A DNA stretch of 32,000 bases from Horticoccus luteus (GTDB lineage: Bacteria > Verrucomicrobiota > Verrucomicrobiia > Opitutales > Opitutaceae): contig NZ_CP080507.1 in the NCBI RefSeq assembly GCF_019464535.1, forward strand, positions 630,001 through 662,000, written 5' to 3'. The notes below the pieces were generated by a model. The model had not been told where the DNA came from. It did no database searches and saw only the letters and a program-made list of their open reading frames with translations. The position numbers and the translations under genes were made by a program. This document shows positions 7,015 through 16,500 of this stretch, in pieces (positions within the stretch are counted from its first letter, which is position 1; every line of letters starts with the position of its first letter).

Positions 7015-7105
7015 AATTGAGAAACCCTGGTATCGCGATGATCTTCGCCTAGCATTCTTCTGAGGAGTTAATAGTGCCGGCGGATGGGAGCCGCGGCGAG
7101 TGAGG

Positions 7106-7202
7106 CGCGGGGTGAGGGCACCCAGCCTGCAGTTGGATTTGGTTCGGACGGGGAGCGGGCTGATTATCTTCGAGCGGAGCGGCGGGGTGAGGGCACTGCG
7201 AC
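7106..7202. repeat. pair of REP-like hairpin motifs (core CGGGGTGAGGGCAC) in a convergent intergenic region
   Basis: Core motif starts at 7108 (cggggtgagggcaccc) and 7183 (cggggtgagggcactg), exactly 75 nt apart. The core can fold as a GGGTG/CACCC stem. The same core occurs twice at 10156 and 10231. Confidence 0.5.
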
Positions 7203-7258
7203 TACACGGGAGGCTGAGATGACGGGGCCGGCCGTTTTTAAGAAATCGCTATATAATG

Positions 7259-9593: not shown

Positions 9594-10445
9594 TTAGCGC
9601 AAGCAGCGCCGCAGATTGTCGCAGACGATCGCGGCGGCGAGGGCGGCGTTGAGCGATTCGGCGCGGCCGTGGCGGGGGATCGTGAGAAACTCCGTGACGA
9701 GCGCGCGGACGGCGGGGGAGAGCCCGCGGCCTTCACTGCCGATCACGATCACGGCATCGCGAGGCGGCGCCCACGTGTGCACATCCGTGCCGGCGAGATC
9801 GCAGCCGAAGATTGCTGCGGACGTGGTGTCGAGAGCGGCCGCGAGGTCGACGGTGCTGACGCGCACGCGGGCGAACGAGCCCATGCTCGCGTTAATCGTT
9901 TTTTGGTGAAACAGGTCGGCGCAGTCCGCCGAGAGCAGCACGCGGTCGAGGGCAAACCAGTCGGCGAGGCGCAGGAGCGTGCCGACGTTGCCGGGATCCT
10001 GCACGCCGTCGAGTGCCAGGGTGAGGCCGCGATCAAGTTCGCGTGGGGCGAGGTCGAGGCGGCGCAGCGGGCCGACCGCGAGAATGGTGGAGGGCGTGGG
10101 AAAATGGCTGGCGCGCGCCATCTCGTCGGGCGTGATGCGGGTGACGGTGGGGTTGCGGGGTGAGGGCACCCCGCCCACAGGGGGCTGCGTGGGGGTGGAC
10201 GGTTGTGAGGTAAGTTCGGAGGTGGGGCTGCGGGGTGAGGGCACCCCGTCCACATCCGGAGGCGTCAGCGTGAGGGATGGCGGTTCAGGCCAATCGGGGG
10301 TGGCGTAGAGTTCGGTGAAAACGGTGCCGGCGGCGAGTAGTTCGCCGACGACTTTTTCGCCTTCGACGACGAACGAGCCGAGCGCTTCGCGGTGTTTCTT
10401 TTCGCGCAGGGAGCGGAGGCGCTGGACGGCGGCTTTGGTGAGCAC
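9594..10445 (-). CDS. TrmH/SpoU family RNA 2'-O-methyltransferase (RlmB-like) with an in-frame low-complexity insertion
   Basis: SpoU methylase motifs: LDGVQDPGNVGTLLRLADWF, VIVIGSEGRGLS, IPRHGRAESLNAALAAAI. The N-terminal substrate-binding-like part is FVVEGEKVVGELL. A GTG start at 10445 gives a typical N-terminus (LTKAAVQRLRSLREKKHRE). An upstream ATG at 10595 would add 50 low-complexity residues. The rest of the 965-aa track ORF is antisense to the next gene and is rejected. Confidence 0.75.
   Translation of the reverse strand: MLTKAAVQRLRSLREKKHREALGSFVVEGEKVVGELLAAGTVFTELYATPDWPEPPSLTLTPPDVDGVPSPRSPTSELTSQPSTPTQPPVGGVPSPRNPTVTRITPDEMARASHFPTPSTILAVGPLRRLDLAPRELDRGLTLALDGVQDPGNVGTLLRLADWFALDRVLLSADCADLFHQKTINASMGSFARVRVSTVDLAAALDTTSAAIFGCDLAGTDVHTWAPPRDAVIVIGSEGRGLSPAVRALVTEFLTIPRHGRAESLNAALAAAIVCDNLRRCLR
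10151..10254. repeat. pair of REP-like hairpins (CGGGGTGAGGGCACCCCG) embedded in the methyltransferase CDS
   Basis: Two copies: ttgcggggtgagggcaccccgcccaca (core from 10156) and ctgcggggtgagggcaccccgtccaca (core from 10231), 75 nt or 25 codons apart. Each has a perfect 7-bp stem (cggggtg / caccccg) and a 4-nt loop. On the coding strand they translate to GVPSPRSPT and GGVPSPRNPT. Confidence 0.6.
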
Positions 10446-10616
10446 GGCGCAGCATGGAGCGGCGCGAGCGGCGGCGGCAAGCGCGACGACTAGCGGCCGG
10501 CGGGCGCGCGTGGTGGCGGTAAAGCGTGAATGTTCGCGCGCGGGCGAGGCGTTTTGTGCGGCGGTTGCTTGCAGTGGCGGCGCGGGGCGTTTCATCGTGC
10601 GGGCGTTACCCAACCT

Positions 10617-15115: not shown

Positions 15116-15163
15116 GTATGATCCGGTGATAGGTAACAAACTATCCGGAGTGATAGGTGACAC
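15116..15163. repeat. IS left terminal inverted repeat with two direct subterminal motif copies
   Basis: Sequence: gtatgATCCGGTGATAGGTAACAaactATCCGGAGTGATAGGTGACAc. The ~20-nt motif ATCCGG(N0-2)TGATAGGTNACA occurs twice. Confidence 0.75.
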
Positions 15164-15203
15164 TTTTTGTTGATAGGTTGGAAGGGTTGGAGGCCAAGTA
15201 TAT

Positions 15204-16439
15204 TTAAGGGGAGGGTTTAAGGGAGGGGGCTTGGCTCCCTCCCTTTTCTGGATGGATCGGGCGGAAGGGAGCGACGTAGGCGGTCGGTTTGAAGCGGCCA
15301 CCTTCGGCATCAAAGCGCAGATGGCCGAGCAGGATATTGGCAAAATGCAGTTCCGTCTGGCCGTCGGGAGCACGGCGCAGGCCCACGCGTTTGCCGGCGA
15401 AGGCTTCGCCGAGGTGGTAGTTCTTTCCTTCGTGGGCGACATGGCCGCTGGTGCTGACCACCTTCACCTCGAACTCCGGGGCATAGACGATGGGTTTGTC
15501 GTGCTCGTTCAAGCGTCGGGTGCTGGGACGGTAAACCTCGGCCGGACGTTGCAGGTTCAGCGCCTCGTGCGGTCGTTCGTGGTTGTAGGTGTGCCGCCAG
15601 CGCTCGAAGCGGCGCTGCTGGGCGGTGAAGGTGGGCGAAGGAGGTTGGGTGGCCTCGGCCTTGAGATCGCGGTGCATGCGCTCGTGCGAGCCGTTGTCCT
15701 GTGGCGAGGCCGGGCGGGTGAACTCGACTTCGATGCCCTGCTCAATCCACCACACGCTCAAGGCGGAGAGCCGGCCCAGCCCGGTCGAGGCGAAGGGCGA
15801 TCCAAGGTCCACCCGGATGATCTCGGGCAGGCCGGTCTGGCGCATGAGCGCCCGGAAGGTGCCCAGGGTCCGGCGGAACTGCTGGTCGGGCTGGCCCCGC
15901 ACCGCCATGACGTAATGGCTGTAGCGGTCGCAGATGGTCAGCGGATCGCAGCGCTGGTTGTTGCCGAGCAGGAACCAGCCTTTGAAGTCCACGGTCCAGA
16001 CCTGATTGGGCTGATTGGGCACCGTCAGCGCCTGGTTGAGGGCGGGATAAACCCCGGGCCGACGGCGGCGCTTCACGCTCTGCCCGTGCCGCCGCAGGAT
16101 CTCGCCGATGGTGCTGCAAGCCGGTGGCCGTTCCACCCCGTGCTTGGTCTCCAGCAAGTCCTGGATCTTTTTCGGCCCCCAGGTCCGGTGCAGGCGACGC
16201 TCCGCCAGGACCAGCTTCTCGATCTGCGCGTCCGTGCGCTGCGGAAAACGGTGCGGGCGGTGGCTGCGCGGGCTCAAAGCCGCCAGGCCGCCTTCGGCGT
16301 AGCGTTCCAAATGCTTATAGGCCGTCTTCCGGCTGATGTTAAACTGCTCGCACAGATCCGTGATCGTGAACCGATCGGTCTGCGCCAAGCTGACGAAACG
16401 AATGATCTCTTCCATTGGGGTGGTGGTTTTCCACGGCAT
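15204..16439 (-). CDS. DDE transposase, integrase (rve) core with N-terminal HTH, IS481-like
   Basis: HTH: FTITDLCEQFNISRKTAYKHLERY. rve catalytic region: QVWTVDFKG (D), IIRVDLGSPF (D), ASPQDNGSHERMHRDLK (E). The length of 411 aa and the single ORF fit IS481-type elements. Confidence 0.9.
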   Translation of the reverse strand: MPWKTTTPMEEIIRFVSLAQTDRFTITDLCEQFNISRKTAYKHLERYAEGGLAALSPRSHRPHRFPQRTDAQIEKLVLAERRLHRTWGPKKIQDLLETKHGVERPPACSTIGEILRRHGQSVKRRRRPGVYPALNQALTVPNQPNQVWTVDFKGWFLLGNNQRCDPLTICDRYSHYVMAVRGQPDQQFRRTLGTFRALMRQTGLPEIIRVDLGSPFASTGLGRLSALSVWWIEQGIEVEFTRPASPQDNGSHERMHRDLKAEATQPPSPTFTAQQRRFERWRHTYNHERPHEALNLQRPAEVYRPSTRRLNEHDKPIVYAPEFEVKVVSTSGHVAHEGKNYHLGEAFAGKRVGLRRAPDGQTELHFANILLGHLRFDAEGGRFKPTAYVAPFRPIHPEKGGSQAPSLKPSP

Positions 16440-16450
16440 AGTGCCGCAGA

Positions 16451-16500
16451 GTGTAACCCATCACCCCGGATAATCTGTCACCTATCACTCCGGATCATAC
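16451..16500. repeat. IS right terminal inverted repeat with two direct subterminal motif copies
   Basis: The reverse complement reads gtatgATCCGGAGTGATAGGTGACAgattATCCGGGGTGATGGGTTACAc. It matches the left end apart from a 2-nt indel and a few substitutions. Confidence 0.75.

Follow-up and report, generated by a model that had tools for sequence, protein, structure and literature searches.

The trmH-family gene examined here lies in a 32,000-nucleotide stretch of the Horticoccus luteus genome, designated the window (positions 630001-662000 of the single-contig genome G000, 4.32 Mb, 64% G+C). This gene very probably contains two in-frame copies of a repetitive extragenic palindromic (REP) element that are translated as ..VGGVPSPR.. 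and contribute about 40-45 disordered residues to a surface loop, leaving the SPOUT fold and its conserved motifs intact. The original prediction, made from the letters of the window, had proposed that a small palindromic element landed in the gene without breaking the frame, and the evidence presented below bears this out.

The gene extends from 9594 to 10445 on the minus strand and encodes a 283-residue protein of the TrmH/SpoU (SPOUT) family of RNA 2'-O-methyltransferases, an assignment based on Pfam, orthologue alignment and a structure model. The frame is intact and opens with GTG at 10445 (VLTKAAVQ...), the start on which the orthologue alignments and our own codon-usage gene caller agree. 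It is the likely start because it matches the conserved M/V-LTKA start of the orthologues (M-LTKAE in relatives); an alternative ATG is located upstream at 10595. Pfam identified a SpoU_methylase domain (PF00588, E 1.6e-30) preceded by an MRM3-like substrate-binding N-terminal domain (PF22435, E 7e-11), and the catalytic-domain columns were invariant across 60 homologues. The AlphaFold2 model, computed with 60 homologues, was confident overall, with a mean predicted local distance difference test score (pLDDT) of 86.5 and a predicted template modelling score of 0.79. The catalytic domain with its conserved motifs, the N-terminal domain and the confident fold place the protein in the SPOUT/TrmH-SpoU family, and methyltransferase activity is predicted from its sequence. 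The score against the NCBIfam equivalog for RlmB, the 23S rRNA Gm2251 methyltransferase, was 69.2 bits compared to a cut-off of 160 (TIGR00186), so the protein was filed at the level of the TrmH family only and no substrate was assigned. The closest solved structure, 2i6d from Porphyromonas gingivalis (E 2.7e-39), has, like the RlmB-type enzymes, an N-terminal L30e/MRM3-like domain followed by a SPOUT catalytic domain. It differs in having 18 residues where the H. luteus protein has 56, a difference of about 38 residues in a loop of the N-terminal domain.

The hairpin core that was originally said to occur twice within the coding sequence is indeed present as an exact 18-mer, CGGGGTGAGGGCACCCCG, at 10156-10173 and 10231-10248 on the plus strand, with a spacing of 75 nucleotides. 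Both copies fall within the minus-strand open reading frame, the translation of which includes the peptide quoted at that time. The pair is not expected by chance, as none was found in 100 dinucleotide-preserving shuffles. Copy A, TGCGGGGTGAGGGCACCCCGCCCACA (10154-10179, plus strand), has no mismatch to the 26-nucleotide genome consensus, and its hairpin at 10155-10174 consists of an 8-bp stem and a 4-nucleotide loop. When read on the sense (minus) strand, it takes the form TGTGGG-hairpin and encodes PVGGVPSPRN, residues 89-98 of the protein. Copy B, TGCGGGGTGAGGGCACCCCGTCCACA (10229-10254, plus strand), has one mismatch to the consensus and encodes DVDGVPSPRS, residues 64-73.

The two copies account for an added protein loop, residues 53-100 (PEPPSLTLTPPDVDGVPSPRSPTSELTSQPSTPTQPPVGGVPSPRNPT), encoded by positions 10146-10289 on the minus strand and delimited by the alignment and the structure model; orthologues free of the REP have 6-12 residues here. 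The H. luteus protein has 48 residues between a conserved W and the motif V.(I/V)T..EM; in an alignment with 15 other genera of the family, 14 had 7-16 residues at this position and lacked the extra segment, so the suggestion that it is an insertion relative to the usual family layout was correct. The length gained is about 40-45 residues. The insert was originally placed between the substrate-binding region and the SpoU domain, a location that had to be corrected, as strands 45-48 and 100-103 of the model border the loop and thus put it inside the N-terminal domain rather than between two domains. The loop was modelled as coil except for one 4-residue helix at 56-59, and the mean pLDDT of successive 10-residue blocks fell from 81 to 47 and 52 (residues 61-80, with the minimum at 61-70) before rising to 68 and 77. 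A low-confidence coil in an otherwise confident model is consistent with the proposal that the REP-coded segment is a disordered loop.

The hairpin motif is a genuine dispersed REP family. The consensus unit is 26 nucleotides long, TGCGGGGTGAGGGCACCCCGCC[C/T]ACA, and a genome alignment of about 90 near-matches gave tgCGGGGTGAGGGCACCCCGcc[c/t]aca. The 18-mer occurs exactly 33 times in the H. luteus genome, and the 26-mer, with up to five mismatches allowed, 89 times; of the latter copies, 65 are intergenic, 22 genic and 2 at gene edges, classes that rest on our own crude codon-usage gene caller. The intergenic copies favor convergent gaps and avoid divergent ones: 26 were found in convergent, 36 in tandem and 3 in divergent gaps, where the fractions expected from gap length only would be 0.11, 0.62 and 0.27, respectively. 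Copies lie a median of 51 nucleotides from the 3' end of a gene. The stem of 8 bp (GCGGGGTG/CACCCCGC) closes a 4-nucleotide loop, and the conserved flank cc[c/t]aca, which is TGT[G/A]GG on the other strand, abuts the stem in most of the approximately 90 copies, including both genic ones. Each unit has a computed folding energy of -16.5 kcal/mol as RNA, in keeping with the strong mRNA structure that had been proposed, and of -10.8 kcal/mol as single-stranded DNA (ssDNA). A hairpin headed by GT[AG]G is the architecture that defines REPs (PMC6006769, PMC3733652). Judged by GT[AG]G located 0-2 nucleotides 5' of the hairpin foot, a stem of 7-20 bp and a loop of 2-5 nucleotides, the H. luteus units are of the GTAG type: they have the GT[AG]G head, a paired stem with compensatory changes, and dispersed, mostly intergenic copies downstream of genes. 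Chance or low complexity as the source of the repeat was ruled out by the shuffles and by reversed-pattern controls, which gave no matches, and a known RNA family was rejected because Rfam returned only one sub-threshold chance match.

The same core had also been listed at 7108 and 7183 of the window. Copies are present there, 75 nucleotides apart, but they are inexact. The copy at 7106-7131 (plus strand) has one mismatch in the 18-mer core and the tail CCTGCA, while that at 7181-7206 (plus strand) has two mismatches in the core, a broken right arm and the tail ACTACA. All of the mismatches fall in the right arm, so that both hairpins are weakened. The two degenerate copies are located in the convergent gap between an M4 peptidase gene and a PhyH gene (7015-7258). 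The shared 75-nucleotide spacing raised the possibility of a longer composite element spanning the genic and the intergenic pairs. This was rejected, since the spacers of the two pairs do not align, and the equal spacing is therefore probably a coincidence.

Among 30 relatives searched, the family was abundant in only two. G003, which belongs to another genus, has 51-54 copies, and G019, from another family of the order, has 42 copies with the compensatory stem variants GCGGGCTGAGGGCAGCCCGCC and GCGCGGTGAGGGCACCGCGCC. Compensatory stem variants also occur in G003 and in the TrmH loops of other species.

The trmH gene is not the only H. luteus gene in which the REP is translated. Copies with three or fewer mismatches within long, high-scoring genes, with Pfam used to define the flanking domains, were found in frame in at least 11 other genes, including those for UvrA, DnaE, FtsY, RecD2, CobW, HrpA and Tex. 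The REP unit has no stop codon in five of its six frames, and the genic copies are read in two of these five, giving VGGVPSPR in antisense and RGEGTPPT in sense. In UvrA (1426995-1430126; this and the following coordinates refer to the genome) and DnaE (1232271-1235957), the REP-coded segments were absent from 10-11 related genera in an orthologue check. In several proteins the segment separates recognizable domains or lies in a linker, between the HHH and helicase domains of RecD2 (824995-827535), between the N and G domains of FtsY (3248797-3249861), and in a His-rich linker of a CobW-type GTPase (3208630-3210132). In others it is found within a domain: DUF3418 of an HrpA-type helicase (3567435-3571724), the central-region domain of Tex (3773707-3776145) and the vWF_A domain of a YfbK-type vWA protein (484796-486904). 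Two further examples are a TPR membrane protein with an in-frame REP, for which Pfam matches the C-terminal TPR only and no domain on the other side of the REP, and a secreted protein with a REP in its N-terminal region, in which no Pfam domain was found. Matches in Lpd and in the E2 subunit at five mismatches are uncertain and were left out of the validated inserts.

Intragenic REPs have been published for another member of the same family, so that the trmH case belongs to a kind of event already known in Opitutaceae. Opitutus terrae has been reported as the genome with the most intragenic GTAG-type REPs; the supplement lists about 70 (Di Nocera et al. 2013, BMC Genomics 14:522, PMC3733652), in genes that include HrpA, FtsY, CobW/P47K, both UvrA genes, E2 subunits, RecD, DnaE2 and ligase. 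As in H. luteus, the O. terrae elements have a GT[AG]G head (frequently GTGG), a stem of 6-9 bp and a short loop, are in frame in housekeeping genes, and encode 7-8 residues per unit. Some occupy nearly the same residue positions: 290-304 of 493 in O. terrae CobW/P47K and 295-304 of 500 in the H. luteus protein; 331-380 of 871 and 337-346 of 846 in RecD; and 127-142 of 481 and 140-149 of 464 in E2, the last being the uncertain H. luteus match at five mismatches. The REP sequence differs, as do the peptides, which are VAGVADPG, GTGVPPV and VGPALAAG in O. terrae, and dimers are common there, whereas the H. luteus copies are singletons or direct arrays on one strand. No TrmH/SpoU gene is included in the O. 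terrae list, and the paper makes no mention of replication-strand orientation; it states that genes of the same category carry REPs at different sites, except for Xanthomonas recB (PMC3733652). In-frame REPs, and Y1 transposases acting on the lagging-strand template, have also been reported (Quentin 2018, PMC6006769). The Rickettsia palindromic elements (Ogata et al. 2000, via PMC10969869) are similar in that they are in-frame palindromes in many unrelated housekeeping genes and add surface segments compatible with the fold. They are about 100-150 bp long, encode 30-50 residues, belong to other families (in part CGTC-type) and occur in an obligate intracellular alpha-proteobacterium. The H. 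luteus unit, 26 nucleotides of unrelated sequence, resembles them in behavior only, as judged from reviews.

The insert in the TrmH loop is not specific to the H. luteus lineage. Whether the segment is lineage-specific had been put forward as a check; it is missing from the 14 genera mentioned above, but many uncultured Opitutaceae have REPs at this place. Many of their TrmH proteins (60-86% identity), retrieved by a word-based search for homologues, show the sequence VGGVP[SP]PR...x6-12...[RS]GVRAPRP[QH] in this loop, and VGGVP[SP]PR...GVRAPRP[QH] is the coding output of an inverted REP pair. The DNA of four such genes confirmed a lone REP in one and inverted pairs of 75-78 nucleotides in the other three (L025, L026, L028), with a first unit that was 0-2 mismatches from the H. 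luteus consensus. In L028, this unit was identical to that of H. luteus at 26 of 26 positions, although the two genes are 72% identical in DNA and 57% identical at third codon positions. Every segment-bearing orthologue examined also had the DNA motif, and the motif is repeated elsewhere in the genome, so neither of the two outcomes named at the outset as refuting the original interpretation was observed.

The word-based search is biased to insert-bearing matches, and 80 species-representative Opitutaceae loci (L085-L164) were therefore picked by the catalytic motifs only, 74 of which gave parsable genes. A perfect hairpin of at least 7 bp was present in the TrmH loop DNA of 24 of the 74 species. 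Hairpins numbered 7.4 per kb within the loop and 0.54 per kb elsewhere in the gene, and 13 of the sampled genes kept a minimal W.G..TH loop. The stems vary between lineages by compensatory changes (GCGGGGTG, GCGCGGTG, GCGGGACG, GGCGGGTG and others), and some of them represent other families. A genome search of the closest GTDB relative, G017, did not detect the H. luteus REP; its TrmH loop has three other hairpins, one of which has 15 copies in the G017 genome and none in the control. The situation in UvrA is similar, in that the loop following RLNARS (loci L047-L054) has unrelated hairpin families in five of six genera. Lineage-specific hairpins in the UvrA and TrmH loops include pairs of CACGGGCTTCCAGCCCGTG in G004 and pairs of GCACAGACATTCTTGTCTGTGC in G001. 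The occupation of the same protein loops by different REP families in different genera seems to have been less described.

These observations extend the best explanation of the trmH insert in a direction that is quite possible, if short of probable: the loops of TrmH, UvrA, CobW, RecD2, E2 and FtsY would be old inherited or preferred REP sites at which families overwrite one another, with the hairpin maintained either because new units insert where a hairpin is already present or because the structure of the DNA or RNA is under selection, so that the insert would not be a one-off accident. The number and density of loop hairpins, the compensatory stem differences, the G017 loop hairpin repeated across that genome, the L028 unit that is identical in a divergent gene, the unrelated UvrA hairpins, and the O. 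terrae REPs at nearly the same residues in CobW/P47K, RecD, E2 and FtsY all point this way. Against it, strong filtering for a few permissive loops could yield the same pattern, no insertion event was directly observed, and in a loop-masked protein tree the carriers are scattered among proteins with short conserved W.G.KTH loops, requiring at least 19 changes, at least seven of which are forced by well-supported branches. An approximately unbiased test on one carrier clade did not reject a single origin (p = 0.08), so recurrent gain and ancient gain followed by losses are not separable. A stronger version, conceivable but doubtful, is that a fixed set of loops (TrmH, UvrA, CobW, RecD2, E2, FtsY and others) constitutes heritable docking sites at which the current family replaces the previous one in situ by strand-specific, replication-coupled insertion into existing hairpins, so that hairpins persist across family-level divergence and their orientation is locked to replication.

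How the gene came to have two copies can be approached from their flanks. Copies A and B share 52 nucleotides at 81% identity (repeat family D17), including a 10-nucleotide 5' flank, GGTGGGGYTG, that is external to the REP and is not present at the other genome copies. In P0002, the closest homologue (identity about 85% across the full length and 91% when the loop is masked), there is only one REP, and what comes after it is a decayed remnant. The shared external flank and the single REP of P0002 favor a local duplication, and the comparison suggests that the two genic copies are probably the product of one REP and a local 75-nucleotide duplication. Two separate insertions, or insertion of a ready-made direct doublet like that at 7106/7181, would be rather unlikely. 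Direct neighbors on the same strand at 33-75 nucleotides are usual in this genome (24 of 27 close pairs), and the intergenic pair 3 kb away has the identical spacing, both of which are compatible with such an origin, but neither the lack of alignment between the spacers of the two pairs, nor the common flank without counterpart elsewhere, nor the structure of P0002 is easily reconciled with it.

The orientation of the copies follows the direction of replication. According to the cumulative GC skew, replication of the H. luteus chromosome starts near position 0 and ends near 1.996 Mb. The skew itself was very strong, about 0.14 in H. luteus and 0.2-0.3 in 20-kb samples of G003, despite the genes not being co-oriented with replication. 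The GAGGG-loop form of the REP was on the G-rich (leading) strand in 85 of 89 copies and in 48 of the 50 copies with two or fewer mismatches. G003 provided an independent replicate, with 53 of 54 copies fitting the leading-strand orientation. Its skew has a negative sign between 0 and 2.16 Mb, a positive one between 2.4 and 4.3 Mb and once more a negative one at 4.56 Mb; the REPs change strand at 2.28 Mb and have changed back by 4.72 Mb, coinciding with the switches in skew. An artefact of gene orientation was ruled out, as neither strand is preferred by the genes (51% and 50% run in the direction of replication) and the REPs are evenly divided with respect to the upstream gene (30 same, 32 opposite). 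An orientation bias linked to replication has been documented for the IS200/IS605 family, where it is ascribed to the ssDNA of the lagging-strand template (PMC3971601, PMC6006769). The literature searched contained no comparable statement on REPs, and the dependence of REP orientation on replication direction seems to be less described.

The bias could in principle result not from insertion but from selection on a polar DNA signal, either a G-rich loop motif that acts like the FtsK orienting polar sequences (KOPS) or selection against hairpins on one of the templates. The near-absolute bias in two genera, its independence from transcription, the G-rich REP loop GGGGTGAGGG and the extreme skew of both genomes speak for this alternative. 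It is nonetheless distinctly unlikely, given that the unit has no exact match by sequence to the E. coli KOPS motif GGGNAGGG, that about 90 copies are far below the number of typical polar motifs, and that a bias of this kind is known for the related IS200/IS605 family (PMC3971601).

The mechanism we propose is that the REP units spread by means of an ssDNA transposase of the HUH/Y1 type, resembling the REP-associated tyrosine transposases (RAYTs), acting at the replication fork. Transposition of ssDNA at the fork would explain why about 95% of the copies have one orientation relative to replication. The second trmH copy would then have arisen by tandem duplication of the first together with its flank, and the insert would be a passenger that the gene tolerates and not an adaptation of the enzyme. 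The features that let the gene tolerate it are shown directly: five of six frames are free of stop codons, the inserted length is divisible by three, the encoded peptide is Pro-, Gly- and Ser-rich, and the loop is free to vary among orthologues. All three steps, the ssDNA transposase, the local duplication and neutrality for the enzyme, are inferred.

Several observations weigh against this scheme, 1) none of the three Y1_Tnp genes in the H. luteus genome (311-323 residues; 1,221,624-1,222,559, the region 2,025,961-2,526,902, and 2,026,413-2,027,384) has this REP within about 1.5 kb, so that no REPtron, that is, a cognate Y1/RAYT gene flanked by the same REP, was found, 2) the best NCBIfam match of the Y1 genes is REP_Tyr_transpos at 58-68 bits, below the cut-off of 80, 3) the presence of Y1 genes does not track the REP family, since G017 has a strong Y1 match and lacks this REP, while G003 has its 51-54 copies and weak Y1 matches, 4) the canonical 5'-GT[AG]G-hairpin strand is the C-rich strand, whereas it is the other strand that is exposed as lagging-strand template; the IS608 model thus gives no simple account of the sign of the bias, and a mechanistic reading of that sign would require the active strand to be identified, and 5) perfect hairpins persist in the loop across many species and may have a role in mRNA or DNA.

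Compared to the known REPIN-RAYT systems and REPtrons (Nunvar 2010; Bertels and Rainey 2011, PMC3116915; Ton-Hoang/Messing 2012, PMC3479197; Quentin 2018, PMC6006769), the H. luteus family has the GT[AG]G guide at the hairpin foot, a high copy number, enrichment at gene 3' ends, encoded Y1/HUH proteins and in-frame insertions, reported there in flexible loops, in common. It differs in the lack of a REP-flanked transposase gene and in its Y1 proteins, which have a long C-terminal extension and fall below the curated RAYT cut-off. The inverted doublets that characterize REPINs are nearly absent from H. luteus (within each replichore a single strand carries nearly all copies, 85 of 89 in total, and only 3 of 27 close pairs have the inverted arrangement), yet they occur in the TrmH loops of its relatives. 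In G019, locus L168 (G019:C4) has an inverted REP pair of a related stem variant at 1180-1265, with the GTAG heads pointing inward, 210 nucleotides upstream of a Y1/HUH gene (1465-2415) that encodes 316 residues and is 45% identical to the H. luteus paralogue at 2,026,413. This was the only REPtron-like arrangement seen and is a hint only.

That selection acts instead on VGGVPSPR as a protein motif, for example a short linear motif or a repeat in a linker, with the DNA identity a by-product of codon usage, is hardly credible: the peptide does recur in many proteins and many TrmH orthologues, but the 65 intergenic copies already contradict the idea, one and the same DNA yields VGGVPSPR or RGEGTPPT depending on frame and orientation, with a third reading, GVRAPRPQ, in relatives, the identity reaches synonymous positions and the untranslated head, and the stem changes are compensatory at the DNA level.

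If the passenger interpretation is right, the trmH gene would represent a selfish hairpin repeat that became part of a protein harmlessly, with identical 26-nucleotide units occurring as intergenic DNA and, in two frames, as a translated loop. Provided that the orientation, which follows replication at 95-98% in two genera, reflects an insertion bias, it would amount to genome-scale evidence that REP singletons move through ssDNA at the fork and would offer a handle on the active strand. Loops that hold different REP families make it testable whether REPs target existing hairpins or selection leaves few permissive sites. In practical terms, REP-coded peptides could be used to flag insertion-tolerant loops in conserved enzymes.

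Two other features of the window were noted. A probable insertion sequence at 15143-16495 is bounded by perfect 20-bp terminal inverted repeats (ATCCGGAGTGATAGGTGACA / TGTCACCTATCACTCCGGAT) and has an open reading frame at 15204-16439 on the minus strand that encodes 411 residues with rve and helix-turn-helix (HTH) domains (DDE integrase-type); the same 20-mer adjoins a Y1_Tnp gene at about 2,525,885 of the genome. The segment 19599-29105 encodes a 3168-residue protein in which RCC1-like repeats alternate with Ig-type domains, and this protein is the reason for the direct repeat families with a 117-nucleotide period in the window.

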